Shown in pieces: positions 1 to 18,651 of a DNA stretch of 22,454 nucleotides. Made by a program: the position numbers and the translations under genes. The stretch's first letter is position 1; each line of letters opens with the position of its first letter. The notes under the pieces are model-generated. The model had not been told where the DNA came from, searched no databases, and saw only the letters and a program-made list of their open reading frames with translations. Source of the stretch: Candidatus Heimdallarchaeota archaeon (lineage in GTDB: Archaea; Asgardarchaeota; Heimdallarchaeia; Heimdallarchaeales; Heimdallarchaeaceae); the NCBI GenBank assembly GCA_016840095.1, contig JAEOSZ010000042.1, positions 1 through 22,454 on the forward strand, given 5' to 3'.

Positions 1-1989
1 CATTGAAGCACCAGAGATGTTATAAGATCCATCAAATTCTGCCTTTGACCAGTTTCTGATAGGCATATCTCCATACATATCTATTGCAACATCAACATTT
101 CCGGCAGTACCTAAATCTCTTAACATTTCAGCTGCAAAATCCTCTTTTATATCTTCATAAGCTGCTCGAGATACTTCTTTAAACCTTGTTGGGAGGTTGA
201 AATCTTTATATGTACCTTTAACAGCAATAGCTTTGAGGTTTTTTGATCCCATGACTGCTCCAAGACCTGTTCTTCCAGCAGCTCTTGCTCCATCATTCAT
301 AATGGAAGCAAACCTAACAAGATTTTCTCCAGCGAGTCCAATACATGCGATTTTGAAAGTCCTGTCATCTAAGTCTTTTAGAAGATTCTTTTGAGTTTCA
401 TAAACACCTAAACCCCAATATTGAGTCGCATCAATTATCTCAACTTTCTGATCTTCAATTTTTAGAAATACTGGTGAATCTGATGCTCCTTCTATTATGA
501 TTCCATCGTAACCTGCAAATTTCAAATGTGGTCCAAAGAAACCTCCTGAATTAGCTTCACCCCAGAATCCCGTCAATGGTGACCTTGAGCATACAGAATA
601 CCTACCTGAACATGAAGTAGGTAGTCCAGTTAATGGACCAGTCATAAATATCAAAGGATTATTAGGTGATAAGGGTGCAACATTGGAACCTCTAACAATA
701 TTATAATAATAATATGCTCCTAATCCACTCCCCCCAACGAATTTCTTAGCTCCATCAAAGTCTAAAGGTTCTTGAGTTATTTGTTTAGTAGTTAAATTGA
801 CTCTCAAAATAACTTCTCTATAACCTCCTGTTATCTCGCCTAACATATCGGAAAAAATACTCCTTAAAGCTTCAGTTGTTATCTCTCTTGGATTTACAAT
901 TGAACCTGTATCGTTTAAAGCAAAATCACTAAGAAGTTGCATGTTATCTTCAAGTATCTTTTCGTTGACTCCAAAACTTCGCAAAGAAGTTCTAAGACCA
1001 ATTTCCTCTATTAACTCTTCTACTCTTTCTATTAGTTTCTCTGCTCCTTGTTTAACTGATTTAAACTCAATTCCAATGGCATGTGCAATCTCTGAATAAT
1101 GTTTTGCAGTTTTTTCTTCTTCTAAACAGAATTTCATCATGTGAGGTAAAGCAACAGCAATAATCTCGCCATGAGGTATCTTAAGTACGGCTCCAACAGA
1201 ATGAGCAATCGAATGTGTTCCTCCTATTTGACTATTACCGATTGCTATTCCAGCCATTGTTGCAGCATTGTGCATTTTTTCTCTGTTCTCAATATTCTGA
1301 CCATCTTTCACAGCTTTAGGTAGATATTCAAAAACTAACTTAATTGCTTGTATAGCCATCGCATCTGCAAAATCATTCTTCCAATCAATAGTGTAAGCTT
1401 CTATTGCATGAGCAAGAACATCCATACCAGTTGATGCTGTAAGTTCTGGAGGAAGTTTTATCGTTAGCGATGGATCAACAATATCGATGTCAGGAATTAA
1501 ATCTCTATGTCCTACAGATAGCTTCTGTTTGGTTTCTGGGTCAGTAATTACAATAGCCCAATTGGCATCCGAACCAGTACCACTTGTAGTTGGTACTGTA
1601 GCTAATTTAGCTTTATTTCTAAGTGGTAGCGGATCTTCAGGAAAAACACTATCGATACTCATTTCAGGATTTTCATAATAAACCCATATAGCTTTTGCAC
1701 AATCCATTACTGATCCTCCACCAATTGCAACAATCCAGTCTACTTGGTTTTGCTCTGCAATTTCAGCACCAGCTTTTGCCATTGGAATTGAAGGTTCATA
1801 GGAAACTTGATCAAAGATAGTTATCTTGAAGTCATTCTTCTCTAAAATTTCAATTGCTTTTTGAGGAATACCAAGATTAAGTAGTACTTCATCAGTTACA
1901 ATAAGTGCACTTTTCCCATGTATCTTGTTTAGCTCATCAATTGAATCTTCTCCAAAGACAATTTTGCGAGGAGCACAATAAAACCACAT
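1..1989 (-). CDS. Fusion: N-terminal iron-containing alcohol dehydrogenase + C-terminal aldehyde:ferredoxin oxidoreductase (AOR family); truncated at window start
   Basis: Manual translation from ATG at 1989 is open to position 1 (663 codons; absent from the ORF track because there is no stop in the window). Fe-ADH motifs: PRKIVFG, AIGGGSVMDCAK, VPTTSGTGSD, GMDVLAHAIE, HSIAH, IPHG, NPRE. In the same frame, AOR motifs: GGYREVILRVNLT, SPLTGFWGEANSGG, LKFAGYDGIIIEG, GENLVRFASIMND, RAAGRTGLGAVMGSKNLKAI. Confidence 0.92.
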   Translation of the reverse strand, partial: MWFYCAPRKIVFGEDSIDELNKIHGKSALIVTDEVLLNLGIPQKAIEILEKNDFKITIFDQVSYEPSIPMAKAGAEIAEQNQVDWIVAIGGGSVMDCAKAIWVYYENPEMSIDSVFPEDPLPLRNKAKLATVPTTSGTGSDANWAIVITDPETKQKLSVGHRDLIPDIDIVDPSLTIKLPPELTASTGMDVLAHAIEAYTIDWKNDFADAMAIQAIKLVFEYLPKAVKDGQNIENREKMHNAATMAGIAIGNSQIGGTHSIAHSVGAVLKIPHGEIIAVALPHMMKFCLEEEKTAKHYSEIAHAIGIEFKSVKQGAEKLIERVEELIEEIGLRTSLRSFGVNEKILEDNMQLLSDFALNDTGSIVNPREITTEALRSIFSDMLGEITGGYREVILRVNLTTKQITQEPLDFDGAKKFVGGSGLGAYYYYNIVRGSNVAPLSPNNPLIFMTGPLTGLPTSCSGRYSVCSRSPLTGFWGEANSGGFFGPHLKFAGYDGIIIEGASDSPVFLKIEDQKVEIIDATQYWGLGVYETQKNLLKDLDDRTFKIACIGLAGENLVRFASIMNDGARAAGRTGLGAVMGSKNLKAIAVKGTYKDFNLPTRFKEVSRAAYEDIKEDFAAEMLRDLGTAGNVDVAIDMYGDMPIRNWSKAEFDGSYNISGASM

Positions 1990-2024: not shown

Positions 2025-2435
2025 TTAGAGAAATTCTGTCTCTACTTCTTGTGCGGAATTAACGAGTTCCATAGCTGCTTTAGCTGCTCGCATAACTTTA
2101 CCTTTGTTTCCTTTGAGTTTAAACTTCCCAGTAAGAATTCCTTTTATTGGATCAATATCTCCATTGATAACTTTGAGCCAATTTGAATATGTTCCTGAAT
2201 ACTCGAATTCGGTTGTTGGAAGTTCATGTCCATCTTCAAAATAGTCAACACTTCTACAATCTCCATGCCAAAGATCTAAGTAGTAGATTTGTTTTTTATC
2301 CAACTTTTCATCAGGTTCAATTACGAATAGAAAGTCACCTTCCCATGTTCTGGCAGCCTCTTTGTAAGCTTGAGAGTTGTTCACTACATCCATAAATTGT
2401 TCTATCCATTCTTTGCTAGGAAATTTTATTACCAT
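2025..2435 (-). CDS. SCP2 sterol/lipid-binding domain protein
   Basis: FPSKEW N-terminus, WEGDFLF, and W..VINGDIDPIKGILTGKFKLKG, typical of prokaryotic SCP2 proteins; ends 35 nt upstream of the ADH-AOR gene on the same strand. Confidence 0.88.
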   Translation of the reverse strand: MVIKFPSKEWIEQFMDVVNNSQAYKEAARTWEGDFLFVIEPDEKLDKKQIYYLDLWHGDCRSVDYFEDGHELPTTEFEYSGTYSNWLKVINGDIDPIKGILTGKFKLKGNKGKVMRAAKAAMELVNSAQEVETEFL

Positions 2436-2590: not shown

Positions 2591-3370
2591 GTGGCTCAGC
2601 TTATGGGAATTAACTGTGAAAATGAGATAGAAATCGATTTTTCGTTTAAAGGTTCCGCAGCAGTTTCAGGGAAAAATCCTGATGGTTGGGGTTATGCATA
2701 TTTTAAGAATGATAGCTGGATGATTTTCAAGGAACCTTTCACTGAGAATCAATTTGAATTGAAAGATTTCCAATTAAACTTTCCAACAAATTTCTATAGC
2801 AACAATCTAATTTCTCATATCCGTTTCGCCTCTAAAGGAAACAAAACAATGGAAAACACTCATCCATTTGAATTGGAGTTGTTTGATAAGAATTGGGCTT
2901 TTGCTCATTCTGGTCATTTGACAATTTATAAACATGTGTTGAGATATTCTGAAGGTATAGAACCTAAGGGAGATACTGATTCAGAAGAAGTGTTTTGCAC
3001 TATTTTGACTGAAATAAAGAATTTAGGTCATTTAGTGAGAGATAAGGAAATTGCTATCAAAATAGAAAAAACAACAAAGGAATTAGCTAAGGAAGGTGGA
3101 ATGAACTTTGTTCTTTCAGATGGAGAGTTTTTGTATGCTTATTATTCTGGATACAAATCTCTTTATTATACTGAATTAAGACCTCCTTTCGATAAAAATA
3201 TTGTAGGTGAAGATAATCAATTATGGTTCACTCTTTTTGTCAAAGATATAGATGTGCAAATTGGAATTGTTGCATCCGAACAAATTATTCCTGAAGTTGA
3301 ATGGAAAGAACTTCAAATGAATACACTTTATGCATTTACAAATGGGAAAAGAACTAAATTTCTTATCTAG
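2591..3370 (+). CDS. Class II glutamine amidotransferase-like (YafJ/EgtC/GATase_4 family), catalytic Cys absent
   Basis: NPDGWG, SHIRFAS.G...NTHPF, FAHSG, GDTDSE, NFVLSDG and VASE motifs; GTG start with an AGGTGG SD at 2581. Confidence 0.85.
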   Translation: MAQLMGINCENEIEIDFSFKGSAAVSGKNPDGWGYAYFKNDSWMIFKEPFTENQFELKDFQLNFPTNFYSNNLISHIRFASKGNKTMENTHPFELELFDKNWAFAHSGHLTIYKHVLRYSEGIEPKGDTDSEEVFCTILTEIKNLGHLVRDKEIAIKIEKTTKELAKEGGMNFVLSDGEFLYAYYSGYKSLYYTELRPPFDKNIVGEDNQLWFTLFVKDIDVQIGIVASEQIIPEVEWKELQMNTLYAFTNGKRTKFLI

Positions 3371-3384
3371 TTGAGATGAGACAA

Positions 3385-3822
3385 ATGAGGATTTGGTCAC
3401 TCCATCCAAAATATCTAGATGCAAAAGGATTAGTAGCTGTTTGGAGAGAATCTTTACTTGCTCAAAAAGTTCTAGAAGGAAAAACTAAGGGATACAAAAA
3501 TCATCCACAATTGAACAGGTTTAAAACCAGTAATCGACCAATAGAATCTATTGGATGTTATTTATCTCACATCTATGAAGAATCTTCCAAAAGAGATTAT
3601 AATTTCGATAAAAACAAAATACAAAATTTCTCTCTATGTGAAAAATTTATATCTGTTACTGAAAGACAAATGAAATTCGAGTTAAAACATCTTTTATCTA
3701 AGTTAGCAGTTAGAGACAATGAATTGTTCCAGACCTTAAAAAATATCAGAAAAATAGAACCTCATCCTCTATTCAAAGTAGTAGATGGAGATATTGAGAA
3801 TTGGGAGATTTTTGAAAAATAA
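3385..3822 (+). CDS. Pyrimidine dimer DNA glycosylase / T4 endonuclease V-like family protein
   Basis: MRIWSLHPKYLDAKGLVAVWRE.LLAQKVL.GKTKGYKNHPQL signature. The family N-terminus suggests the ATG at 3385 rather than 3376. Confidence 0.85.
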   Translation: MRIWSLHPKYLDAKGLVAVWRESLLAQKVLEGKTKGYKNHPQLNRFKTSNRPIESIGCYLSHIYEESSKRDYNFDKNKIQNFSLCEKFISVTERQMKFELKHLLSKLAVRDNELFQTLKNIRKIEPHPLFKVVDGDIENWEIFEK

Positions 3823-3914
3823 CTTGTAATTTTAGATAAGTTAAAACATAATTCTGAAACTATCAAATTAAATGTGTAAAAATTCTTAAATTACAGTGTA
3901 TTAGAACAAATTCC

Positions 3915-5024
3915 ATGAATTCAGAAATAAACCTGAGAAGTGAAGAGAAGAAGCCATTCAAAAAACGTTATCTTGATTGGGTCATAGTATTGTTTTTCTT
4001 CATCAATTTTATATTTATTACATATATTGTTGATATAGAGCAGCTAGTTATCAAAGATCCAGCAACATGGGTTTCTGGACCTGGATGGCCTCCAGACTTC
4101 TTTATTCAAATTATTCATAATTATGGAACTAATATAGATCCTTTGCAATTTGCCAGACCAACTTGGTGGAAGGCTACTATTTGGGTGGATGTCTTGTATT
4201 TTGGTCCTTATTATCTCGTTGGAATGTATGCATTCATTAGAGGAAAAAGATGGATACGAATCCCAAGTTTTATTTGGAGTGGTGCAATGTTCATCAATGT
4301 TACCACTATCATGGGTGAAGAATTTTTTGGACCACATCAAGCTATCAAAATGTGGTTAGTAGTTCTCTTGAATTTGCCATGGTGGTCATTTCCATTCATA
4401 GTTACGGCAAGATTATGGAATCCTTATCCGTTCCATAAAAAATTACCAAAACAAAAGGATGAAGATAGCACACCTTTGAGACCAGAATCAGAAGCAAGTC
4501 AATCATTACCTCTTAAGAAGAGATGGTATGATATTCTAATCATTGCTTGGTTTCTAATTAATGTGATATTCATAATTTATATTATTGATTTAGAGCAGAT
4601 AGTGATAAAAGATCCATCAAGTTTTACTTATCCTGGATGGCCCCCAGCATTTATGGTAAATGCAATACACTGGTGGGGTTCTAATTTTGACCCTGTTTTG
4701 ATGGTCAGAGGTGTTTGGTATAAAACCTTGATTTGGATAGACGTTATCATGTTTGGCCCATACTATATAGCAGCTACTTATGCATTCATTAAAAAGAAGA
4801 AATGGATAAGAATTCCAACAATACTTTATGCGGCTCTTATAGTAGAAAATTTGATTATTATCTTAACAGAAGCATTTTTCGGTCCGAACAAAACCACAAC
4901 TCCAGGAATTTATCTGGCAGCTTACTTACCTTATATGTTGGTTCCAATACTCATTGGTATTAGAATGATTCTGAAGCCTGATCCTTTTGCTAAAGGAACA
5001 ATTCTAAAAAGAAAGAAACAGTAA
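3915..5024 (+). CDS. Membrane protein with two tandem EXPERA (EBP/TMEM97/TM6SF-like) domains
   Basis: Internal duplication (KKR..D...IN..FI.YI.D.EQ.VIKDP...PGWPP...DP...W.K..IW.DV..FGPYY....YAFI..K.WIRIP...E.FFGP...LP....P.....R...P.PF), about 4 TM helices per repeat, joined by a charged linker. Confidence 0.8.
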   Translation: MNSEINLRSEEKKPFKKRYLDWVIVLFFFINFIFITYIVDIEQLVIKDPATWVSGPGWPPDFFIQIIHNYGTNIDPLQFARPTWWKATIWVDVLYFGPYYLVGMYAFIRGKRWIRIPSFIWSGAMFINVTTIMGEEFFGPHQAIKMWLVVLLNLPWWSFPFIVTARLWNPYPFHKKLPKQKDEDSTPLRPESEASQSLPLKKRWYDILIIAWFLINVIFIIYIIDLEQIVIKDPSSFTYPGWPPAFMVNAIHWWGSNFDPVLMVRGVWYKTLIWIDVIMFGPYYIAATYAFIKKKKWIRIPTILYAALIVENLIIILTEAFFGPNKTTTPGIYLAAYLPYMLVPILIGIRMILKPDPFAKGTILKRKKQ

Positions 5025-5040
5025 TCTAAGTAAGACATTA

Positions 5041-5061
5041 CTTCTTTTTCTCCTTTTTTTT
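5041..5061 (+). terminator. Oligo-T archaeal terminator
   Basis: CTTCTTTTTCTCCTTTTTTTT 16 nt after the EXPERA gene stop. Confidence 0.6.
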
Positions 5062-5103
5062 GCACAAACTTCATTTAGTAGAATAACCTAATGTTTTGGT
5101 ACT

Positions 5104-6042
5104 ATGAAGAAAATAAAAATTACACTTACAATTGTTCTAGGAATATTAATGACATCTGTTTTAGTTTCCAATGTTTCCAATGCTATACTTGCCTCAGATG
5201 TACTTGAGGTTGGTGCCTCTAGTTATGTAGAGGGAGAGTTATATCTAGATACAGCTGTTGCAGCAGACAAGTTACAAGCATATGTCACTATTGCTGTTAC
5301 TAGAATATTCAATCCTGGGGGTATACTTGATCAAGTCATCGAATTTGAAATAAAGATAAGACCTGTGGAACCTTATGGGTTTGGAATTCTTGATGATCCA
5401 ACTGATATTATTTTAAAATTCCTAGTTTTCACTAACAATAGAACTACAATAATACTTGCAGAACTATTTGTTCAAAATGCTACTGAATCAATCGAAATGA
5501 CTGTGCTACACGAAACAGATTATTTTGCAATGCTAAAACCAGAAAATAGAAAGATAACATTTGCAAACGGAACTACCGCAATAGCCGGATCACTCGACAC
5601 TGCTGATCCTAAATATCTATTACTAGAGCAATTTAGTGATATATCTAATGATTTCTTATTCTGGCACAAATTCACTATACTTGCAATATCTCCAACTGCT
5701 GTATTGGGAGATGATATAAGTTATGATCCCACTCTAGGTGAAGTTATTGGAACTCCAGCAGTTACTACTTGTGAAGATGATTCGTATGATTCTATTCTTG
5801 TTGAATATTATAATACAGGTCTTTTCAACAAAATGGGTGATGCGTATGAAGTTCATGCATACTACGAAGCTGCTTCTGGCTTGTTAATTCAGATTTATGA
5901 ATTCATTGAGCAAGGTACTGTCACATGGAAATTCATTCCTTGTAGACTAAACACAGTTGTTGTACCATTTCCAACAATATCAGTGATAGCAAGTTTAGCT
6001 GTAATAGGTTTAATTATTGTATTTATTAGAAGGAAGAAATAA
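5104..6042 (+). CDS. Secreted cell-surface protein with a C-terminal membrane anchor (CTERM-like)
   Basis: N-terminal signal peptide (MKKIKITLTIVLGILM...SNA), acidic beta-rich body, C-terminal VPFP + hydrophobic helix + RRKK. Confidence 0.75.
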   Translation: MKKIKITLTIVLGILMTSVLVSNVSNAILASDVLEVGASSYVEGELYLDTAVAADKLQAYVTIAVTRIFNPGGILDQVIEFEIKIRPVEPYGFGILDDPTDIILKFLVFTNNRTTIILAELFVQNATESIEMTVLHETDYFAMLKPENRKITFANGTTAIAGSLDTADPKYLLLEQFSDISNDFLFWHKFTILAISPTAVLGDDISYDPTLGEVIGTPAVTTCEDDSYDSILVEYYNTGLFNKMGDAYEVHAYYEAASGLLIQIYEFIEQGTVTWKFIPCRLNTVVVPFPTISVIASLAVIGLIIVFIRRKK

Positions 6043-6044
6043 AC

Positions 6045-6062
6045 CTTCTTTCTTTTTTCTCT
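6045..6062 (+). terminator. Oligo-T/pyrimidine terminator
   Basis: Pyrimidine/T tract immediately after the stop at 6042. Confidence 0.55.
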
Positions 6063-6115
6063 ATTCTTTAGTTTTTGCAAATTCTTTATAAATAAGTTCT
6101 GAAACTGAAAAGAAC

Positions 6116-6982
6116 ATGAAAATCAAGCTAATAACAGATGGTTCTTCTACAATGCCTCTGGAGATGATGAAGAAAGAGAATATTGGTTTTCTTGAATCTA
6201 TGGTAGTTATTTATGAGAAATTCTATAGAGAGCTAACAGAAATGGATTTTGAAGACTTTGTAGGTAAATTATATAATTATGATCCATATCCAACTACTAC
6301 TCAAGTTACACCTGAGGATGCTTTAAACGAATTTAAGAAGGCAGTTGACGAAGGATATGATGAAATATTATATCTTGGTTTGACACCTAAGGTTTCTAGT
6401 CAAATGAACGTTGCTCGTCTTGCAGCTAAAACATTAAAGAAGCAAATCAAAATTCACATATATCCAACTGATCTAAATTGTGGATCTCAAGGTGCGATGA
6501 CTTATAATGCTTGGAAGCTTCTTAAGAAAGGAAAATCAGCTGAAGAAATTATGGAATACCTTGATAGCATAAAAGAACAAGTATATACAATTGGTTTAAC
6601 TGAGGATGTAAAAACACTTTTCAAAACTGGAAGAGTAAAAAGAGGTTCTATTAAGGGAATAATGGTGTCTCTTCTCAAAATGAAACCAATTGCTCATCTA
6701 ACTGTAGAAGACGGTTGGCTGGGTTATGGAGCTAGTACAAGTTACGATGGTGCAATCAAGAAAATGGTTGCTGAGATAGAATCAAGAACAGATCCTAAAA
6801 TAGAGTATAATCTTTTCATGTCAGATGCTGTTAATAGAGAGTTAGTCAAAGTATATGCTGAGGAAATTCAAAAAGTAAGAAATATCAAGGAAGTACATTA
6901 TTGGAATATGTCTCCCGTACAAGCTCTTACTTCAGGTAAGAAGGCAACTATTGCAACAATAGCACCAGTTGTTGAAGAGTAA
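6116..6982 (+). CDS. DegV family fatty-acid-binding protein (FakB-like)
   Basis: MKIKLITDGSS, PTTTQVTP, GYDEIL, KVSSQ, LFKTGRV and LLKMKPI match DegV motifs; typical length of about 285 aa. Confidence 0.9.
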   Translation: MKIKLITDGSSTMPLEMMKKENIGFLESMVVIYEKFYRELTEMDFEDFVGKLYNYDPYPTTTQVTPEDALNEFKKAVDEGYDEILYLGLTPKVSSQMNVARLAAKTLKKQIKIHIYPTDLNCGSQGAMTYNAWKLLKKGKSAEEIMEYLDSIKEQVYTIGLTEDVKTLFKTGRVKRGSIKGIMVSLLKMKPIAHLTVEDGWLGYGASTSYDGAIKKMVAEIESRTDPKIEYNLFMSDAVNRELVKVYAEEIQKVRNIKEVHYWNMSPVQALTSGKKATIATIAPVVEE

Positions 6983-6991
6983 ATATGAGTC

Positions 6992-8560
6992 TTATGTAGA
7001 TTCGTATTCTTTTTCCTTTACTCCTTTAGGGGGGTCAGGTAGACCTTTAATATCTGTTAGCATTTTCTCTGTTTCAACCTTTTTGTAAAAAGATTTAGAA
7101 AGCTTGATTTTCTTCAAAGTTTTCTCTATCTCTTCTGTAGATTTTCTCTGATATTCTCCCCAATCTTTGGAATAAATCCCTTGTTTCTTTGCAATATCTA
7201 CTTCGAAATCATTTAGAATTTGTTTAGTATTCATTATAGACATCTTGTTAACAATATAAACACAATTATCTATTATCTTCCAAATTTGAACTCGTATTTT
7301 ATTGCTTAATGTTTCCTTATCTACATTCTGCACTAAGGTGTCTGTTAAATTCGATATTGTGTCTTTCAACGCTCTTAAGGTTTGTTCATCTAGATATTCT
7401 GGTATATTTGAAGCAATTAGATTAGTTTCAGAAAGAGTTCTGGTAAGCTGTCCTTCTAAGAGAGCTGTGCTTTTTGAGAATTTTCTGACTTCGAATCTTT
7501 TGGTAAGACTTTGGAGAGCTTTTGTTGAACTCTTAACATTAATCTCAGTTTCATTATGGAAGTAAGAAAGTATTTTTTTATTTACTGAAATGCTTTCTTT
7601 AACAAATTTGTCTGAATATTTCTGTTTTGCTAGTTCATCTAATGCTTTCTCAACAAAACCTAGAGTATCACCATTCGAACTATCCAATTTCATGAGAAAA
7701 TATGCTAATTCAAGTTGTGTATAATAGGGGGCAGTTTCAATTTCTTTCTTAAGTAATTTCTCTATTTCTTTTCTTACTTCTTCATCAATCTGATTAAGTG
7801 CATCAGAAGTATCAAGTAAATGTAAAAATCTAAGTAAGTTGGTTAAGCTTAATTCCTCTGAAACTTTCTTATCAGTCAGAATTTCAAGAATAATTTCACT
7901 CACCATTATACTACTGGATAAATTCTTTGAACCAAGAATTGACCATAAGTCAGACATCATAGCTAGCCTGTTCATCTGATCTTCATCTTCCTCGAAATGT
8001 CTCAAGAATCTTTCCACTAAGAGTATTTCGTGGGAGTAAGTTTGTCTAAATGGTTCATAATTGTTTAAAGTTTGTTTAAGGTTTGGAGAGTAATGGCCAT
8101 CTGCGATATACTCATCTATTTTTTTCTCAGCTTTTTTATCACCAGTGAGGTAGTTTTCAAAAAGCTTTTCACTCAACTCCATTGGAACTTCTGAACCAGA
8201 AATTTGTGATTCATAGAGAATATTGGTTGAAAGTTTGACTATTAGTCCTTCAAGTCTATCTATCTTCTCAATAATAACATCATGATCCTTTGATAATTTC
8301 TGAACACCTTTAAGTATCATTATGTCAATTTCTTTATCTTGAACTCCATAAGGACCAAGTTCTTTCTTGAGAATCTCTCGAAATTCTTCTAAACTGTCTG
8401 CTGAGACAAGTTCTTTTTCGATATTCCTCTTGTGTTCTTTCTTAAATTTGGCCTTTATTCGTTTGTAAAGAAACTCTCCCGCAGCTTGCCCTCCCATACG
8501 TTTAACAATTTCAATGAGAACCCCTGCGATGAAAGTACCGATGGTTAAAGAAACAATCAT
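6992..8560 (-). CDS. Hypothetical all-alpha protein (about 522 aa) with a hydrophobic N-terminal helix
   Basis: Long ORF with host-like composition and no recognised motifs. Start is either ATG 8560 or TTG 8569. Confidence 0.75.
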   Translation of the reverse strand: MIVSLTIGTFIAGVLIEIVKRMGGQAAGEFLYKRIKAKFKKEHKRNIEKELVSADSLEEFREILKKELGPYGVQDKEIDIMILKGVQKLSKDHDVIIEKIDRLEGLIVKLSTNILYESQISGSEVPMELSEKLFENYLTGDKKAEKKIDEYIADGHYSPNLKQTLNNYEPFRQTYSHEILLVERFLRHFEEDEDQMNRLAMMSDLWSILGSKNLSSSIMVSEIILEILTDKKVSEELSLTNLLRFLHLLDTSDALNQIDEEVRKEIEKLLKKEIETAPYYTQLELAYFLMKLDSSNGDTLGFVEKALDELAKQKYSDKFVKESISVNKKILSYFHNETEINVKSSTKALQSLTKRFEVRKFSKSTALLEGQLTRTLSETNLIASNIPEYLDEQTLRALKDTISNLTDTLVQNVDKETLSNKIRVQIWKIIDNCVYIVNKMSIMNTKQILNDFEVDIAKKQGIYSKDWGEYQRKSTEEIEKTLKKIKLSKSFYKKVETEKMLTDIKGLPDPPKGVKEKEYEST

Positions 8561-8599
8561 ATTTTCCAATTATATCTCGTGTTTTATGATATATATTTC

Positions 8600-8627
8600 T
8601 GTTTAAAGTGCTAATAGAAAAATAGAA
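8600..8627 (+). repeat. Imperfect direct repeat, copy 1 (TGTTTAAAGTGC-taatagaaaaatagaa)
   Basis: First 12 bp identical to 9545-9556, followed by a similar A-rich tail. Confidence 0.55.
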
Positions 8628-8634
8628 GAAAAAC

Positions 8635-8662
8635 TTGTTCTGCTCTTTTGTAGAGAGAACAA
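8635..8662 (-). terminator. Hairpin + T-tract terminator of the flavoprotein gene
   Basis: TTGTTCT(G)CTCT-tttgt-AGAGAGAACAA, an 11-bp stem with one bulge, followed on the minus strand by GTTTTTCTT. Confidence 0.6.
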
Positions 8663-8669
8663 AAAATTT

Positions 8670-9425
8670 CTATACCATTCCAATACGTATAAGAAAACCA
8701 AATAGGCCATTAAACAATTTCAAAGTAAACTTCTGACCAAATGAGAGTTTCATATCGACAAAGAATTTCTTCTTAGAATAATATCTATAATCAGCTAAAG
8801 ATTCATCAGCCTCTCCTTTATATACTGCTTTAAATGCCGAAAACCAAACTAGATGGCCAAAAGAGGGCTTATAATTAAATGGCTTTTTCATTTTATTTGC
8901 AAATTTTGTTGCTTCTTTTTCTAATTTCTTAGATTGTTTTTCTCTTTTCTTATCATTCATACCGGGAGAGTTCATGATACCAATTCTACCAATAACTTTC
9001 CCACCTGAAGCCATAAGTGACAAGGCATTTGATGCTTGTTTAATCCCTCTATAACTACCACTTGTAATAAGAATCAAAAAACGTTGATGAAAGTACCGAG
9101 GTCTATGCATCAAATATGAATAGCGGTCAATATAATTTTTCATCCGCCAATTAACATTCATCGTATGATTAGGACTTGCTAATATTACTCCATCAGCAGA
9201 TTCAATTTTATTAACAATAACATCGTGATCATCCTTCAAAGGACAAAATTCTTCTCCCTTTGTTAAACATATATGACAACCTCTACAACCTTCCAAATTG
9301 ATCTTATTTAGAAATAAATACTCATATTCACAATCGTAATGCTGCTTATGAATTCTTTCAATTTCCTTTATTGCATTGTATGTGTTTTTTCTTCGTGGGC
9401 TACTAATTATTGCTAGTATTTTCAT
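8670..9425 (-). CDS. Flavodoxin-fold NAD(P)H-dependent FMN reductase / iron-sulfur flavoprotein family
   Basis: MKILAIISSPRRKNT FMN loop, CRGCHIC-x6-CPLKDD cysteine cluster, ADGVILASP and MKNYIDR. Confidence 0.88.
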   Translation of the reverse strand: MKILAIISSPRRKNTYNAIKEIERIHKQHYDCEYEYLFLNKINLEGCRGCHICLTKGEEFCPLKDDHDVIVNKIESADGVILASPNHTMNVNWRMKNYIDRYSYLMHRPRYFHQRFLILITSGSYRGIKQASNALSLMASGGKVIGRIGIMNSPGMNDKKREKQSKKLEKEATKFANKMKKPFNYKPSFGHLVWFSAFKAVYKGEADESLADYRYYSKKKFFVDMKLSFGQKFTLKLFNGLFGFLIRIGMV

Positions 9426-9471
9426 GATTTATTCGAAAAAGGGTTATTGTCCAGATAAAAAAAGTTTATTG

Positions 9472-9501
9472 TCAGTTTTGAAATATAACTTTCAAGACTG
9501 A
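9472..9501. promoter_or_regulatory. 12-bp inverted repeat upstream of the flavoprotein promoter
   Basis: TCAGTTTTGAAA-tataac-TTTCAAGACTGA (1 mismatch). Confidence 0.55.
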
Positions 9502-9544
9502 TTGTCTGAATAAACTATAGAGAAAGAAATAGGATTTACATTAT

Positions 9545-9571
9545 TGTTTAAAGTGCAAATGAAAAAAAGAA
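9545..9571 (+). repeat. Imperfect direct repeat, copy 2 (TGTTTAAAGTGC-aaatgaaaaaaagaa)
   Basis: Matches 8600-8627. Confidence 0.55.
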
Positions 9572-9584
9572 TAAAGAATTGGAA

Positions 9585-10655
9585 TTATCCAATTTCAATT
9601 TGTTTTCTATATGCTTTTTCGGTATAAGTGAAACCATGTATTTCTAATTTGACTATTTTATCTAGTTCTGCTATCATTCCTATGATACTAAGTACTGCAA
9701 AGACTATTACTAGAGATTTTATAATAAGTGGAATGTTAGCATCTACGAACTTATTTTGTAATGCTACTTGGATAAGATCTGGATTGAAATGTAGTCTTAA
9801 GAGCAAAGCGAGATTAAGACTTGATGGAATGATATGCAAAGCAACAAACATTTGTTGTAACCTTAATCGTTTTCCAACTAATGCTTGAGCGAATCTAATG
9901 ATACCACCAATTATCATAGCACCACCAGCTAGTTTCAGCCATTCAGCAAATCCTATCATGTAAGTTGCCATGAAAGGTTCATTTATTGTAGCAAATGGAT
10001 AGAAAATTAATACTCCTCCGATAACAAAACCAACAATAGCTTCAAAGAGATAGCTACCTGATGTTGGTAAGACTGCCTTAGGTTTCTTTTCTCTTTTTCT
10101 TCTGGTTCTTCTAGTTCTTGGTTCCTTAACAGGTTGTAATTTATCTTCATCTACCAGTCGTTTGAAATCTTCAGGTAAGAATCCTTGATAAGATAATTGA
10201 ACAAATAGTATTGTTATACCAGCAAATGCAAATGCAAAGCCTACAAATATCTCCCAGAAAGCATTACCGACAATAGTTACTGTGTCACCTTTTCCTAGTT
10301 TGAATGCCATAGTAATCATATTAACTAAGATTGATACTACTCCTGCAAAAATCAGAGATCTGTAGTACCATGGCCAAAGCTCTTCTGTAATAAAGAACTT
10401 AGGAGTTCCTCTTGTTCTAAATTCTTTGGCAATTTTTCTTGGAGATCCCATCTGAACTATGGCTTCTCTTACGTGCATAAGCTTAGGATCTGCTCCATCA
10501 GCTAGTTCTGAAGCTTTATCCCAGATATGATCTTCCAATTCATCTAGGAAGTCTTTAAGTTCTGATTCCTTAGTTTTTAACCAAATAGGTAATTTTTTCT
10601 TTACCTCTTTCTTAAAAGCGTCAATCATTTCTCTTGATTCAATGTTTATATTCAT
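9585..10655 (-). CDS. PadR-associated membrane protein with an N-terminal HAAS-type signalling domain
   Basis: ELEDHIWD...MGSPRKIAKEF (HAAS-like E..H / GSP..IA motif) followed by about 6 TM helices. The ATG at 10655 has a GAGGT SD and lies 10 nt after the PadR stop. Confidence 0.78.
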   Translation of the reverse strand: MNINIESREMIDAFKKEVKKKLPIWLKTKESELKDFLDELEDHIWDKASELADGADPKLMHVREAIVQMGSPRKIAKEFRTRGTPKFFITEELWPWYYRSLIFAGVVSILVNMITMAFKLGKGDTVTIVGNAFWEIFVGFAFAFAGITILFVQLSYQGFLPEDFKRLVDEDKLQPVKEPRTRRTRRKREKKPKAVLPTSGSYLFEAIVGFVIGGVLIFYPFATINEPFMATYMIGFAEWLKLAGGAMIIGGIIRFAQALVGKRLRLQQMFVALHIIPSSLNLALLLRLHFNPDLIQVALQNKFVDANIPLIIKSLVIVFAVLSIIGMIAELDKIVKLEIHGFTYTEKAYRKQIEIG

Positions 10656-10665
10656 CTTTTTAACC

Positions 10666-11187
10666 TCATTTTGACAATCCTTCAATATTTAATCCACAAA
10701 TATTGCAGAATCTTACATCTTGGTCCTGTGGAATTTTATTGGTACAATTTGGACAGTATATGAACTTCTTTTCAGGAAGTTTGATCTCTATATCCATCAA
10801 TGGAGTAATTGCCTCAAGAAGTTTTGAGAAAAATCCTACCATGTGATGATATAGTTCTGTTCCTTTTTTTGTTAATTTATAGTACTTTCTAGGACGGCCA
10901 CCAGACTCTTTCCTTTCGGATACTACAAGTTCATCTCGCTCCAATTTTCTAAGGATAGGATACAAAGTTCCCTCCTCAATTATTAGAGTTCTACCAGTCT
11001 CTTGTTCAAGTTCTTTTAGTAATTGATAACCATAAATTCCCTCTTCAGGATGTCTCTGAATTATTGACAATGCAGATAGTGTGGATATCCCTCGGAGCAA
11101 TTCAGATTCAAAGCTTTCAACGTATGATTTGATTTGCTCATCCTCTATCAGAGCTCCTTCTCGATATGTTTTGATGTTTCTGAACAA
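10666..11187 (-). CDS. PadR family transcriptional regulator with a C-terminal zinc ribbon
   Basis: ELLRG, YGYQLLKEL, EGTLYPILRKLE and RPRKYYKLT.KG; C-terminal CPNC-x11-CNIC; TTG start with an AAGGTG SD. Confidence 0.92.
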   Translation of the reverse strand: MFRNIKTYREGALIEDEQIKSYVESFESELLRGISTLSALSIIQRHPEEGIYGYQLLKELEQETGRTLIIEEGTLYPILRKLERDELVVSERKESGGRPRKYYKLTKKGTELYHHMVGFFSKLLEAITPLMDIEIKLPEKKFIYCPNCTNKIPQDQDVRFCNICGLNIEGLSK

Positions 11188-11212
11188 GTTTTTACACCTT
11201 TTTCAATGTTTT

Positions 11213-11275
11213 TTAGTATTTCTGTTATACTAACAAACAGATACTATAACACGTATAGTATTGGACATATATAAA
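11213..11275 (-). promoter_or_regulatory. PadR operon promoter: TATA (TTTATATA, 11275-11268) and two palindromic operators
   Basis: ATACTATA-N5-TATAGTAT (11241-11261) and TTAGTAT-N7-ATACTAA (11213-11233). Confidence 0.7.
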
Positions 11276-11370
11276 CATTTTCAATTGAGCTCGAAATGAA
11301 AATTACATCATAAAATAGAGTTAAAAAGCCAGATAGTAACCTCTCAATGTAACCTTGATAGGTGTATAGA

Positions 11371-12267
11371 ATGACAGATGATGATCAAGATAAGAAAATT
11401 GAAGAGTTGGTAAAGCAAGGAACAGAGCATTATGATAAATATGCGTTTGAAAAGTCTTTAAGTTGTTTTCAAGAAGTACTAAGGATTGATCCAAAACATG
11501 TAGATTCATATAGAGCTATTGCAAACATCCATCGTTCTCTAGGACAAATTCCAGAAGCCATAGAATCTTGTCAAAAAGCTCTTGATATCGATCCAAATGA
11601 TGTTGTTGCCTTGTTACTTCAAGGAAATTATCACTTCGAATTAGATGACATAGAGAATTCTTTTCGATGTTATCATCAAGCAGCTGAAATAGCTCCTGAC
11701 AATACTGATGTGTGGTTCAATCTCGGCAATTTACATAAATCTCAGAAAGAATATGAAGATGCTTTGAGAGCTTTTCAGAAAGGTGAGTCATTAGATTCTT
11801 CAGATTTAGGCTTGTTAATAATGTTTGCAGACTTATTTGAAGAATTAACAAAGATTGATGAAGCTATGGAATATTATTACAAAATTGTAAAACTAAGTCC
11901 AGATGCCTATTCAATTTGGATTAGATTGGCTGAATTGCATTTCGATAGAGAGGAGTATGAAGATGCTGTAAAGTGCCAATTAAAAACACTTGAACTTGAT
12001 CCTCAAGATTACATTACTATGAATAACTTAGGCTATACAAAGCTTAAACAAGGAAAACTAGATGAATCTTTCGAACACTTAGGTAAAGCAATAGAGATAG
12101 GTCCAGAATATGCAAATTCTTGGGATAGTTTAGGTGAAGCTTTCGAAATAAAGGGGGATTTGGACAAAGCTCTAGAACATTATACTAAAGCTGTAGAGTT
12201 AGATCCATCTGTAGAATTACACAAAGAAAATCTTTCTAGAGTAAAAGAGAAAATGGAAAAGAAATGA
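11371..12267 (+). CDS. Tetratricopeptide repeat protein (about 8 TPRs)
   Basis: Recurrent 34-aa units (W.NLG...A...F.KAL.LDP). ATG at 11371 follows an AGGTG SD; the track's GTG lies inside that SD. Confidence 0.92.
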   Translation: MTDDDQDKKIEELVKQGTEHYDKYAFEKSLSCFQEVLRIDPKHVDSYRAIANIHRSLGQIPEAIESCQKALDIDPNDVVALLLQGNYHFELDDIENSFRCYHQAAEIAPDNTDVWFNLGNLHKSQKEYEDALRAFQKGESLDSSDLGLLIMFADLFEELTKIDEAMEYYYKIVKLSPDAYSIWIRLAELHFDREEYEDAVKCQLKTLELDPQDYITMNNLGYTKLKQGKLDESFEHLGKAIEIGPEYANSWDSLGEAFEIKGDLDKALEHYTKAVELDPSVELHKENLSRVKEKMEKK

Positions 12268-12276
12268 ATTCTGAAA

Positions 12277-12924
12277 TTAATGATAACACAAAGACCAATT
12301 ATCTTGGAAAATGTCAATCATAGTCATTATTTCGTTATATCCTACTGTTGAAAAGAAAGGTTTTGGACACACTTGATCTCCTTTATAACTGACATCGAAA
12401 TGAATATGAGCACTCTCCTGAACATAGAGAAATCGTGCAATTTCCTGTCCTAGTTCTACCCAGTCTCCTTCTGCAACCTGTAACATTGCTAACTGTTTAT
12501 CTTTATCTGCAGGATTTTGAGTCCAAGGTTCAAAGTTATACCAAAGAGTTATTGTCTTGTTGTATCTGATTTGAATACCTACATAGTATCTATTTTCTAT
12601 CCCTTCACCATTATCTTTCCACCTAATTTCCACAACTTTTCCTGGTGCAGCAGCTATCACTTGTGAGTTATTTAGAAGGAAATAATCCAGTCCATTATGA
12701 ATAAATCCCCATGGACAACTAATTGTCTCGCTGTACCCTTCATTAAATCCATAGTTATCTGAACGATTCCCATAAATTACTGTCATGAAATTAAGATTAG
12801 TAGAATCATATCGCTCTCCAGCATCAAAAAATAGACTGTCCCACATGTATACTAGAAAAAGAGTACCTACAGCTATGATTGCAATAAGTAAAATCACTAG
12901 AAGTATTTTGACAGCTTTATGCAT
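12277..12924 (-). CDS. Membrane-anchored M23-family metallopeptidase-like protein
   Basis: N-terminal TM helix; HNGLDY (HxxxD), VIAAAPGKV, V.EGDWVELGQEIA and AHIHFDV (HxH). Confidence 0.78.
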   Translation of the reverse strand: MHKAVKILLVILLIAIIAVGTLFLVYMWDSLFFDAGERYDSTNLNFMTVIYGNRSDNYGFNEGYSETISCPWGFIHNGLDYFLLNNSQVIAAAPGKVVEIRWKDNGEGIENRYYVGIQIRYNKTITLWYNFEPWTQNPADKDKQLAMLQVAEGDWVELGQEIARFLYVQESAHIHFDVSYKGDQVCPKPFFSTVGYNEIMTMIDIFQDNWSLCYH

Positions 12925-12986
12925 GATTATATATGCATACTAAGAGCATAAAAGTTTTTGTTGGAAGAAAAGAAAAAAATGAGCAA

Positions 12987-13868
12987 TCAGAGTTCTTTCT
13001 CAAACATTGAAGATTTACTCTCTTGCTTGAATCCCATACCTTCGTAATCCTTTAGTTTCTCCATCATTCCACCAAACAAGAATGATTTTAGTTCAAAGAC
13101 TTCTTTTTCTTTACATTCATTTACAATCTTTGAAACTAATTCTTCTCTAAATTTATCCTCTGTGGCATAGATGTATCCAACATAAGCTACATTTAGCTCG
13201 GGATCAATTTGTGCATAAGTTCTAGCTGTAATTTTGTTGTCTTTTCTAATAACAAAGTGACCAAGAATGTTTTCTGCTGTATCAATTACTTCGAAGTTTT
13301 GAATGGCTTGTTCTTCAGTCATTCCTAGTTCTTTAACGAATATTGCTACAAGTTCATCAAGATCTCTTTCCTTATCGTAAAGTAAAACATCTTCCTTAAC
13401 TTCAGTAGTACTGATATTGTCTAATTTTTGAGATACCAGATAAGCTGTATCCCGTTTAAATTCAAATCCATGTTTCTCAGGTACTTTTGCGCTTTCTCCC
13501 CAGGAGTCATTTGCAAAGAATCTGATAATCTCTGCACCTTTAATCTGTAAAATTTTTACTCCTTCTGAAAGCAAAAGACCAAATGCTTCTTCGTGTCCTT
13601 CTAATACTAAAGGTGGACTAAGAGTAGCGATTGTTTTTCCTTCTTCTTTCTCTGGAATTACCCTAGATGTTAGAAATCCTACCATCTCTTCTCCCTTAAA
13701 GCAGTATAATCTAGTTTCTGGATCAAAATCTGGTTGTGAATAAGCTTCCTTGAGTCTATCAACAGGTGTTTGACCAAATAGCAACCAATTCTTACTTACT
13801 TCAGTACCTATTCTAACTTGATCTTCAATAAATTTTTCTTGATAAGTTTTGATAACGTAATCTGACAT
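12987..13868 (-). CDS. Tandem GNAT-fold acetyltransferase-like protein
   Basis: Two GNAT-like halves (GEEMVGFL...KHGFE; ITARTY...YEGMGFK). Probable ATG at 13868 lies 22 nt after TTTATATAA (13899-13891), suggesting a leaderless mRNA. Confidence 0.65.
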   Translation of the reverse strand: MSDYVIKTYQEKFIEDQVRIGTEVSKNWLLFGQTPVDRLKEAYSQPDFDPETRLYCFKGEEMVGFLTSRVIPEKEEGKTIATLSPPLVLEGHEEAFGLLLSEGVKILQIKGAEIIRFFANDSWGESAKVPEKHGFEFKRDTAYLVSQKLDNISTTEVKEDVLLYDKERDLDELVAIFVKELGMTEEQAIQNFEVIDTAENILGHFVIRKDNKITARTYAQIDPELNVAYVGYIYATEDKFREELVSKIVNECKEKEVFELKSFLFGGMMEKLKDYEGMGFKQESKSSMFEKEL

Positions 13869-13997
13869 AACAGAAAAGAAGTAAAAACTGTTATATAAAT
13901 TTGCTTTATTACCAAATATCGGGTAACCCTGTGTGAATTTTGGTAACACACTGGAACTTAAATATTTAGCGCTTTTGCGGGAATATTAGGTGTTATT

Positions 13998-14531
13998 ATG
14001 GACATTAAAGAATTTTTTTCAAATATTTGGAATAAAAAAGATGCCGCACTTTGGTTAGTATTTCTACGGATTATTGTTGGTTTTGAGTGGTTTTTTGCTG
14101 GTCTGACCAAAATAATTCAAACAGCACCAAGCTTTCCAGAAGGAATGGCTGGGACATTAGGTTTCTTTTCAACAGGTGCTCCAACTTGGATGAGCAATTG
14201 GCTTACAGCTATGTTACCTGCTGCTACTACTTTTGGATATCTCGTAGAAATAGGAGAATTACTCATAGGTTTAGCTTTGATGTTTGGAGTTTTAGTAAAT
14301 CTTTCAGCACTAGTTGGAATTTTCTTTAACTTCTTATTCTTCTTTGCTGCAGGATGGTTAGGTGCATCAACAATTTCAATAAATTGGATACTATGGGCAA
14401 TTCAAATTATCTTTATACTAAGCCCAGGTGTCAAGAAACTAGGTGTTGACGGATGGATTGCGAAGGAATATCCTTTCTTCAGACGTTTGCTAGTAGATTG
14501 GTTCGGCTTTGAAAAAGAATTAAACAAGTAA
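13998..14531 (+). CDS. DoxX / TQO small subunit (DoxD)-like membrane protein
   Basis: FLRIIVGFEWFFAGLTKI, LVEIGELLIGLALMFG and LGVDGW; AGGTG SD. Confidence 0.85.
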   Translation: MDIKEFFSNIWNKKDAALWLVFLRIIVGFEWFFAGLTKIIQTAPSFPEGMAGTLGFFSTGAPTWMSNWLTAMLPAATTFGYLVEIGELLIGLALMFGVLVNLSALVGIFFNFLFFFAAGWLGASTISINWILWAIQIIFILSPGVKKLGVDGWIAKEYPFFRRLLVDWFGFEKELNK

Positions 14532-16002: not shown

Positions 16003-16106
16003 TGAAATCCCTAAAATTTTTAATGTAGTTGTTAAAATGTCTTCAATTACTAATTAGAATGGAGTATAGATTCAACTTAAATAACAGAATCATGAAGGAA
16101 TTAAAA

Positions 16107-17996
16107 ATGACTGTTGATAAAGATCTGAAGAAAACTACAAAAAATACAGAAACTAAACTCTTAATGGGAAACAGAGCAGTTGTTCAAGGATTATTGGAAG
16201 CAAAAGTTGGTTTAACCACTGCTTATCCTGGAACTCCAAGTACAGAAATTCAAATGCAACTTTATAGATTGAGTAAAGAAGGTCAACTGTTCTTCGAGTT
16301 CTCAGTAAATGAAAAAGTTGCATTAGAAATTGCAGGTGCTGCAGCAATGTCTGGAGTACGATCAGCTGTAATAATGAAACATGTAGGAATGAATGTTGCA
16401 TCTGACCCATTGATGGCTTTAGCATATTTTGGAGTATTAGGTGGAATGGTTATAATCATTGTTGATGACCCAGGATGTCTTTCTAGCCAAAATGAACAAG
16501 ATTCACGCTTTTGGGGTAAGTTTGCTCATTTACCCATTCTAGAACCATCAACTTCTCAAGAAGTTAAGGATACAATAGTAAAAGCATATGAACTATCTGA
16601 GAAGCACAATATGATATTTTTTGTTCGATTGACAAATTATACCGCATTGAATACTTCCGAAGTTGAAATGACTGTAGTTGATGAGAAGTTGGGTAAAAAT
16701 GGACAATTTGTTAAAGATGTTAAATATCTCATACCAGCTAGATATATCTACCATAAAGAATTGCATGGAAAGCTTCATGCGATTAGTCAGGATCCAACTT
16801 TTCAAGCTTTTAATGAACTTAAATTTTCAGATTCTACTTCAGATAAATTGGTTATAACTCAAGGTGCTATTTATCCAATGGTAGAGTATGCTCGTAACTA
16901 TGCAGGAGTAGATGTTCCTATTCTAAAGATTGGTGCCATTCATCCTTTCAGCGAGAAGCATATAGTTAAGCTTCTAAAGAAGTTCAAATATGTTTATTTC
17001 ATTGAAGAGTTAGAAACCTATGTAGAAGATGAAATATCAAGTATAATAGGGAAGTATAATCTGGATATCAAAGTGTTTGGAAAGAACAAATTAGGAATAC
17101 CCCAAGAAAACAGAATTCTTCCAGATTTATTACTCCATCCATTTAAATTGATAGCTAGCGATCCCGATGATCCTCAAACTTGGGATTTCAAATTACCTGA
17201 ATCCTCTCCTTATCCTCAAGTGTTTAACAGAGATGGATTATTGATTCCCCGAACTCTCCCTAGACTTTGTGACGGTTGTTCTCACAGAGGAGCTTTTCAT
17301 TCAATTAAACAAGCAGTAAAAGCTGATTATATTGTACCTTCAGATATTGGTTGTTATGCATTAGGCCAAGTATCTCCTGTTGAGGTAGGAGATTACTGGT
17401 TGTGTATGGGAGCTAGTATTGGAACTGCTATAGGTCAATCTTTGGTCAATAAAAAACCTGTAATCGCAATAATAGGTGATGGAACATTCTTTCATGCAGG
17501 AATACCACCTTTAATTGATGCAGTTCTCTATGATCACAATATTACTGTTGCAATTTTGAATAATCGACTAACAGCTATGACTGGAGGACAGCCAAGTCCT
17601 TCTTCTACAGAAAAGATAGCAAAAAATCAAAACGAAATTGATATCGAACAGCTTGTTAGAGGAATAGGTGTAAAATGGGTTAAATCAGTCAGTGTAGAAA
17701 ATGTTCAAGAAAATACAAAATTGCTCAAAGAGGCAATTGAATATGAAGGTCCAGCTGTAATGATATTCTCTGGCAATTGTGTTGTTGAACTACTTAGACA
17801 TGACTTTGATCTTGGTCAAGCCCCATATGTAGATCAAGAAGTTTGTATTTACTGTGGAATCTGTTATATTGATTTCTCATGCCCTTCAATTATTAAGAAG
17901 GATGGAAAAATAGAGATTAGAGAAGAAACTTGCACTGCTTGCAATATCTGTGTGGATGTCTGTCCGCATGATGCAATAATTCCGAGGAAGAAATAA
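16107..17996 (+). CDS. iorA: Indolepyruvate:ferredoxin oxidoreductase alpha subunit
   Basis: LMGNRAV, YPGTPSTEI, SVNEKVALE, MKHVGMNVASD, SSQNEQDSR, LCDGCSHR, SDIGCY, GDGTFFHAG...NNRLTAMTGGQ and two C-terminal ferredoxin motifs. Start at 16092 or 16107. Confidence 0.95.
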   Translation: MTVDKDLKKTTKNTETKLLMGNRAVVQGLLEAKVGLTTAYPGTPSTEIQMQLYRLSKEGQLFFEFSVNEKVALEIAGAAAMSGVRSAVIMKHVGMNVASDPLMALAYFGVLGGMVIIIVDDPGCLSSQNEQDSRFWGKFAHLPILEPSTSQEVKDTIVKAYELSEKHNMIFFVRLTNYTALNTSEVEMTVVDEKLGKNGQFVKDVKYLIPARYIYHKELHGKLHAISQDPTFQAFNELKFSDSTSDKLVITQGAIYPMVEYARNYAGVDVPILKIGAIHPFSEKHIVKLLKKFKYVYFIEELETYVEDEISSIIGKYNLDIKVFGKNKLGIPQENRILPDLLLHPFKLIASDPDDPQTWDFKLPESSPYPQVFNRDGLLIPRTLPRLCDGCSHRGAFHSIKQAVKADYIVPSDIGCYALGQVSPVEVGDYWLCMGASIGTAIGQSLVNKKPVIAIIGDGTFFHAGIPPLIDAVLYDHNITVAILNNRLTAMTGGQPSPSSTEKIAKNQNEIDIEQLVRGIGVKWVKSVSVENVQENTKLLKEAIEYEGPAVMIFSGNCVVELLRHDFDLGQAPYVDQEVCIYCGICYIDFSCPSIIKKDGKIEIREETCTACNICVDVCPHDAIIPRKK

Positions 17997-18006
17997 GAGG
18001 TTGAAG

Positions 18007-18651
18007 ATGATGAGTGAAAATAGAAAACAAAACGAAAAACCGGTCAACATTGCTATAGTAGGCTTAGGTGGTCAAGGTGTTATAACCTTAGCAAAACTTA
18101 TTGCTTCAACTAGTTTTGGATTAGGAAAGAAAGTGTGTTTCAACGAAATGCATGGTTTATCTCAACGTGGAGGTTCTGTTCAATCGTTTATTAGAATTAA
18201 TGAAGCTAATAATCCAATTTTCGCTGCTGAAGATGTAGACCTTGTTATAGGGATGGAAAAACTTGAAACAATCAGATATCTCTATCTAGCAAAGAAAGCT
18301 CAGCCAAAGGTAATCATGACAAATAAATATGATATCAGATCTACACATGATTTGGGATTGGTGGTTTTTCCAGATGAGGATGAGATTGATAAAGAGATAG
18401 CAAGATATTCTTCGGAAGTATATCTCTTTGATGCTCTAGGGTATGAAGAGAATTTCAAGGGTAAATTCAAACCTCTCAATGTTCCTGTTTTTGCAATTTT
18501 AACTACATTCCCAGAGTTAGGTCTTCCTGAGAAAGAATCAAAAGATTTAGTTTTGGATTATCTTGGTCGTAATATGTTTATCAGACAAATTAACAAAAAG
18601 GCATTCGAAGAAGGACCGAAATGGCTAAAGAAGTTGGAGGAGAGCTCATGA
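18007..18651 (+). CDS. iorB: Indolepyruvate:ferredoxin oxidoreductase beta subunit
   Basis: GLGGQGVIT, EMHGLSQRGGSV, GMEKLETIR and INKKAFEEG; directly follows iorA. Confidence 0.92.
   Translation: MMSENRKQNEKPVNIAIVGLGGQGVITLAKLIASTSFGLGKKVCFNEMHGLSQRGGSVQSFIRINEANNPIFAAEDVDLVIGMEKLETIRYLYLAKKAQPKVIMTNKYDIRSTHDLGLVVFPDEDEIDKEIARYSSEVYLFDALGYEENFKGKFKPLNVPVFAILTTFPELGLPEKESKDLVLDYLGRNMFIRQINKKAFEEGPKWLKKLEESS

Follow-up and report, generated by a model that had tools for sequence, protein, structure and literature searches.

The window, by which we mean the whole 22,454-nt stretch of Candidatus Heimdallarchaeota DNA analysed here, contains a real gene in which an Fe-ADH and an aldehyde:ferredoxin oxidoreductase (AOR) are encoded as a single chain. 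We consider it probable, judging from the residues retained in both parts, that the product is a bifunctional, CoA-independent enzyme in which both halves are active and benefit from their proximity. The frame lies on the minus strand and runs from an ATG at 1989 to base 1 as 663 stop-free codons, with Pfam matches to Fe-ADH (residues 7–173), ADH_Fe_C (184–381) and AFOR_N (394–593). The gene is truncated by the assembly, since base 1 is the terminus of contig C13; a search of the genome for the missing C-terminal part found no second piece. The earlier note on this DNA had described a full Fe-ADH, with its GGGS loop and D/H/H/H metal ligands, reading without a stop into an AOR N-terminal domain, and all of these elements are present. 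The features are as follows.

1–1989, minus strand: fused Fe-ADH::AOR frame of 663 codons, truncated at the contig terminus; complete homologues reach 996–1007 aa.
841–1989, minus strand: Fe-ADH half, residues 1–383 (Pfam; PDB 3zdr, E 2e-74).
1891–1893, minus strand: Asp33, the aligned counterpart of the NADPH-blocking D494 of C. thermocellum AdhE; NAD(H) predicted.
1711–1722, minus strand: GGGS cofactor loop, residues 90–93 (G90–S93), from the sequence.
1171–1422, minus strand: region with the metal ligands D190, H194, H259 and H273, from the sequence.
852–857, minus strand: A6 run in the codons of residues 378–380; frame supported by homologues.
844–846, minus strand: ATG of Met382, part of the ADH C-terminal helix.
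826–840, minus strand: junction, residues 384–388, a codon-for-codon match to the split locus L133; putative relic.
Within 826–840, minus strand: codons 384–385, corresponding to the AOR ribosome-binding site of L133.
832–834, minus strand: codon 386, presumed position of the old stop, from the match to L133.
829–831, minus strand: codon 387, presumed position of the old start, from the match to L133.
1–831, minus strand: AOR half, residues 387–663 present; AFOR_N at 211–810; pterin/Mg contacts R463, N480, R569 and T628 kept.
2025–2435, minus strand: SCP2-fold gene, 136 aa (Pfam SCP2, E 1.7e-8), 35 bases upstream of the fusion.

A search with the junction region identified 18 protein clusters that cover the junction whole and are 63–87% identical, drawn from NCBI, ENA, JGI and Logan assemblies. 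Complete members have the full length given above and include AFOR_C, and named members are Heimdallarchaeota or Heimdallarchaeaceae, save for one partial record labelled Thorarchaeota. Their alignment is gap-free over the junction, which has an identical length in all of them. We also surveyed 83 genomes of the class, including 25 from the window's Heimdallarchaeaceae genus. The junction is matched in 14 of the 25, every one of which reads through without a stop, and 11 have no match to it; one in-frame TAG is present at the junction in two sister-genus genomes and in one genome of another family. The earlier note had pointed to the six-base A run as a possible frameshift, and an assembly or sequencing error at a homopolymer so close to the junction could in principle have made the fusion. 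The run exists, but this explanation is already refuted and deserves practically no weight, as the same frame and junction length recur in the 18 clusters from independent assemblies and the frame is kept in 13 other genomes. Because the junction alignment is gap-free and the other genus genomes read through, the run is ordinary coding sequence. Nor do close relatives all encode two separate genes, the outcome on which the earlier note would have given up the fusion: relatives within the genus are fused and more distant ones are split. The architecture Fe-ADH, AFOR_N and AFOR_C in a single ORF, for which that note suggested searching, is found in Asgard genomes and also in bacteria.

Both halves look intact, as judged from conserved residues and a structure model. 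The Fe-ADH and ADH_Fe_C matches lie above the Pfam cut-offs (155 and 183 bits), placing this half among the type III ADHs, and the nearest solved structures are the ADH domains of AdhE. The GGGS loop and the four metal ligands are conserved in every fused copy that covers them. Substitution of D494 by Gly in C. thermocellum AdhE admits NADPH (PMC11365378), and since Asp33 aligns with this residue the ADH half is predicted to be NAD(H)- rather than NADP(H)-linked. The two electron carriers proposed earlier, NAD(P) and ferredoxin, would follow from the known chemistry of the two families, with Asp33 pointing to NAD(H) for the first.

The AOR half shows the AOR fold in three ways: AFOR_N in the window, AFOR_C in the homologues and the fold match of the model. 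An AlphaFold2 model of full-length fused protein P0003 (pLDDT 92, pTM 0.77) matches 1aor, 9mqx and 9g7j and, separately, the ADH domains of AdhE, with TM scores of 0.94–0.95 to 1aor/9mqx and 0.91 to the ADH domains (by target); no chain containing both ADH and AOR was found among solved structures. The [4Fe-4S] cysteines C674, C677, C681 and C890 are invariant in the 16 full-length fusions, as are Y702–E703, H838, D733, R463, N480 and R569. A check of the C-terminal ligands had been proposed in the earlier note, and they are indeed conserved in these 16 homologues; the window copy ends before the cysteines, and its own C-terminal part was not recovered. The binding residues of a bis-pyranopterin W site are kept, and synthesis genes for the cofactor were not found in the genus. 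AORs sensu stricto are defined by second-shell residues T243, E313, Y427 (or His) and H448 (PMC12096430). In P. furiosus numbering, T243, E313 and H448 are identical in the fusion and Y427 is replaced by His, as in the active C. formicoaceticum AOR (PMC12096430). Purifying selection acts on both halves (dN 0.03–0.21 vs dS 0.23–2.6).

Comparison with known enzymes places the AOR half close to the class I WOR/AOR proteins (1aor, 9mqx and the C. autoethanogenum enzyme 9g7j), with which it shares 39% identity, TM scores of 0.94–0.95, the four cluster Cys and the equivalents of T243, Y312, E313, H448 and Y452. It differs from them in its N-terminal Fe-ADH, in the His at Y427, in lacking the Fe-bridging Glu332 and in that both Asp-x-x-Gly-Leu pterin motifs begin with Asn. 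Class I WORs are defined as a large subunit alone (PMC13328260), a definition that excludes a chain with a 383-residue ADH, but the fusion is nevertheless predicted to work like one. Neither the five-class WOR scheme of 2026 (PMC13328260) nor the tungsten-enzyme review of 2025 (PMC12096430) mentions an ADH fusion of this kind.

AOR and ADH are known as separate proteins in acetogens, in Thermoanaerobacter X514 and in P. furiosus with AdhA (PMC12096430, PMC10816221). The fusion contains the same enzyme families and, using ferredoxin and NAD(P)H as they do, would run the same conversions between acid, aldehyde and alcohol without CoA; unlike the two-enzyme route, it is a single chain of ~1000 aa, its partner gene encodes an SCP2 fold, and its cells have no detected pterin synthesis. 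Its architecture also recalls AdhE and BdhE (PMC12454647), in which an Fe-ADH is likewise joined to an aldehyde-handling enzyme and which likewise arose repeatedly and independently. In those proteins, however, the partner is an ALDH, whereas here it is a pterin-dependent AOR, the ADH comes first and there is no acyl-CoA step. We rejected assignment of the fusion to AdhE: the window frame has no Aldedh match, i.e. no CoA-acylating ALDH domain, and PRK13805 matches the ADH part only, with 327 bits against a cut-off of 951. The earlier note knew of no characterised fusion of this type, and our literature search, with subscription journals mostly outside its reach, likewise found no description of an Fe-ADH::AOR fusion. 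It is apparently an undescribed, repeatedly evolved fusion of two known enzymes of a known pathway. It may have been overlooked partly because database names and gene calls show one half only: the archaeal fusion is named alcohol dehydrogenase by NCBI and AOR by JGI, and for a bacterial 1006-aa ADH-AOR frame (L139) NCBI lists just the 604-aa AOR part (P0455, a suffix of P0326), on a contig whose length is the same.

The fusion most simply reads as the product of stop-codon loss in a putative SCP2-ADH-AOR operon. Split relatives have the gene order SCP2, ADH (383 aa) and AOR, with ADH and AOR abutting in frame, and the same order is found in many Chloroflexota and in one Bathyarchaeia genome. 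Split locus L133 can be aligned to the fusion codon by codon: position 386 is TAA, position 387 is ATG, and the ribosome-binding site covers 384–385, so that the join would have required only loss of the stop and no insertion. Outgroups are split, and the split state is therefore ancestral. L133 and the sister genus may be pre-fusion or reverted, the base of the clade being an open fork in the tree. The earlier note had suggested that the ATG at 844–846 could be a relic AOR start. This caveat was misplaced, because residues 386 and 387 are where the old stop and start lie, and we reject it: Met382 is the Met of the last ADH helix, and its equivalent precedes the ADH stop in the split loci L001, L003, L118 and L133.

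The junction has also been reopened. In L132 (1160–1215), a secondary split was produced by a new TAG and then a 15-base duplication that created a new AOR start, whose ribosome-binding site appears to be made of the old junction codons. L132 is nested among fused copies, and a fused-only clade is rejected (AU p 0.0007). A further rearrangement is evident in the P0004 lineage (G010, G013 and G018; L123 and L124), where the ADH half is 95–98% like P0003 but the AOR half is 83–92% like P0012 and just 66–78% like P0003. This mosaic points to recombination that exchanged the AOR module within the fused gene, and implies that AOR halves are exchangeable. Read-through or recoding of TAG was considered as a general explanation of the in-frame split relatives and rejected: a separate ribosome-binding site and a TTG start are present in G054, L133 has TAA followed by ATG, and both stop and frame vary among Chloroflexota ADH/AOR junctions. 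As a separate observation, in L001 and L003 (5995–6020 in each) the AOR directly follows the ADH's TAG, and the stop is overlain by a purine-rich site, 5–6 bases ahead of a conserved ATT; a start at this ATT is possible in place of the called GTG and would give an N-terminus equal to that of L133.

Joining of ADH and AOR also appears to have arisen independently in bacteria, in both orders. An exhaustive search found three further fused clusters beyond the archaeal set, and following one of these led to 62 ADH-AOR clusters (at the 90% identity level), whose named matches are Clostridia; several clusters have the reverse AOR-ADH order, including one in Ca. Tharpellaceae. Halves of the bacterial fusions are 28–38% identical to the archaeal halves, lower than the 40–46% of unfused Chloroflexota enzymes, and the forward bacterial forms have a junction as short as the archaeal one. 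For the AOR halves, an AU test rejects a common origin of the archaeal and the forward bacterial forms (p 1e-55). In the AOR tree, fusions fall in at least four lineages; this is a quick tree, in which the archaeal vs forward-bacterial contrast alone was formally tested. The bacterial chains have the same Pfam content as the archaeal ones but different neighbours, either moeA/tup genes or a DUF1329-BNR-MMPL cluster. The Tharpellaceae reverse fusion (L137:1–7934) sits behind such a DUF1329-BNR-MMPL cluster; these clusters are linked with uptake of hydrophobic compounds. A second reverse-fusion family (L140, L141; 1053 aa, 105 members) has two moeA genes and an ABC transporter of the tungstate type as neighbours. 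Other AOR fusions were seen as well, with an HPS/OMPDC-family barrel (P0175, 832 aa) and with a GNAT domain (P0127, 776 aa, one sequence), and P0191 (786 aa) is an AOR with an extra unassigned tail.

In the mechanism that we infer, including its activities, carriers, metal, substrate class, direction and cofactor salvage, loss of a stop between two abutting genes of the SCP2-ADH-AOR operon yielded one chain. The ADH half would interconvert alcohol and aldehyde with NAD(H), and the AOR half aldehyde and acid with ferredoxin, via a bis-pyranopterin W (or Mo) centre and one [4Fe-4S] cluster. Oxidation of alcohol to aldehyde with NAD+ is uphill and that of aldehyde to acid with ferredoxin downhill, and the converse holds for acid reduction. 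Because an uphill step precedes a downhill one in either direction, the aldehyde should be scarce, and an adjacent second site would then help. What the cell gains is most likely that the two activities are made 1:1 and lie close together, so that a reactive, scarce aldehyde would stay near the next site with no sealed tunnel. Dismutation of aldehyde by the fusion is also possible. Among the points against this proximity mechanism, (i) an active AOR half requires an unproven cofactor supply, (ii) the fusion is present in just 14 of the 25 genus genomes and one copy has gone back to two genes and (iii) the C-terminal third of the window copy lies beyond the contig end.

A tighter arrangement would make the protein an analogue of AdhE, in which the ADH of one chain docks on the AOR of another and the aldehyde passes through a protected tunnel. 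The identical junction length in 18 clusters, the repeated fusion in both orders, nine positions that are conserved in fused copies and different in four split ones, and the precedent of ALDH-ADH fusions that gained channelling twice (PMC12454647) are consistent with such a structure. AdhE and BdhE interfaces, however, use lengthened loops that are missing from their sister single-domain enzymes (PMC12454647), whereas the fused forms add no residues relative to their split orthologues. Together with the exchange of the AOR half in the P0004 lineage and the re-splitting of L132, this makes a tunnel unlikely, and the aldehyde channelling put forward in the earlier note is so far unsupported. Still more doubtful is the broader proposal that ADH-AOR fusions constitute a third repeatedly evolved aldehyde-channelling class beside AdhE and BdhE, with an Asgard form that is fed by SCP2, needs neither CoA nor ATP to interconvert alcohols and acids of the long-chain or isoprenoid kind, and uses an imported tungsten-pterin.

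The join could instead be nearly neutral, the stop having been lost by drift between in-frame abutting genes whose halves are unchanged and gain nothing. We hold this to be possible but not the likelier account. It fits with a split state just one codon away (L133), with sister genomes that are still split, with the reversion of L132 and with the 11 genus genomes that have no match. On the other hand, all 14 genus genomes with the locus have it fused, at synonymous divergence near saturation, and the same join is seen in four or more AOR lineages. Drift is largely compatible with the proximity mechanism, the sole difference being whether the fusion is selected.

The supply of cofactor bears directly on whether the AOR half is active. 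No moaA, moaC or moeA was found in any of the 25 genus genomes (72–92% complete), and none was found in the split relatives either. Elsewhere, the same search found them in 17–18 of 61 related genomes and in 11 of 14 controls; within families f5 and f6 the majority of genomes gave no match, and a moa/moe cluster is present in the family's two single-contig genomes (G027 and G030). Genome G000, when searched, yielded no moaE, no TupA-type tungstate binder, no sulfite-oxidase-fold (PruR-like) binder, no match to the MoeA, MoaC or MoaB of relatives and no clear uptake module near three of its AOR loci. Each genus genome has a single MoCF_biosynth match (~265 aa), which we take to be a CinA-type domain and which was rejected as a sign of cofactor synthesis because the relatives' MoaB and MoeA do not match it. 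With no pyranopterin-synthesis genes found in the genus, the AOR half would have to obtain its cofactor externally. The genus and most f5 and f6 genomes are likely pterin-cofactor auxotrophs, and salvage from other cells is the simplest and most likely reading of the gene content.

That these genes were found in none of the 25 genomes, when other relatives and most controls have them, might alternatively mean that the AOR half works without a pterin, as an Fe-S carrier, a scaffold or an aldehyde binder. This is very improbable: the fusion shows no variation at the residues of the pterin, Mg and W sites, and the six other G000 AOR paralogues that cover these positions retain them. About seven places in the same genome hold additional AOR genes, most of which retain pterin and cluster residues, and the genome keeps a formate-dehydrogenase-like molybdopterin protein (G000:C32:15307–18031) and ThiS/WorX-like genes adjoining two AORs. 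Two 436-aa TnpB/IS605-type genes also occur near G000 AOR loci (L160:11224–12534 and L162:16571–17881).

AOR plus ADH is the acid-to-alcohol route of gas-fermenting acetogens and engineered Pyrococcus, and a natural one-chain version offers a ready test of whether flux rises or aldehyde leak falls when the steps are joined. Controls come from within the family, whose fused, never-fused and re-split forms are 60–80% identical. With fusions that recur in either order, the convergence known from AdhE and BdhE now reaches an unrelated fold, and an AOR-rich Asgard genus in which no pterin-synthesis genes were found poses a separate, testable question of cofactor salvage. Note that both halves and their chemistry were already known, that adjacent operon genes commonly fuse and that the function given here is a prediction from sequence.

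The comparison of loci indicates that the SCP2-fold gene is a conserved partner of the AOR/ADH module. An SCP2 homologue is present in 51 of 80 AOR-selected loci, from Chloroflexota, Bathyarchaeia, Deltaproteobacteria and Heimdallarchaeia, and 26 of these 51 have no Fe-ADH in the stretch examined. The 35 bases between SCP2 and the fusion in the window are T-rich. A probable role of the SCP2-fold protein is to carry substrates of low solubility; judged solely by gene neighbourhood, there is about an even chance that the substrate is itself a poorly soluble alcohol, aldehyde or acid. Deltaproteobacterial-type loci (L046, L061, L064, L067 and L070) have the order AOR, SCP2, ADH, and in L061 the frame with the SCP2 match is long and overlaps the AOR region. 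Elsewhere in the window, genes for indolepyruvate:ferredoxin oxidoreductase-like alpha and beta subunits (16029–18651) are a possible aldehyde source. Adjoining SCP2, a block of GATase_4, EXPERA, DegV, HAAS, PadR, M23 and DoxD genes (window 2591–14531) is syntenic in L005, with an EXPERA protein that has two domains and 369 aa in the window and is shorter (186 aa) in L005.
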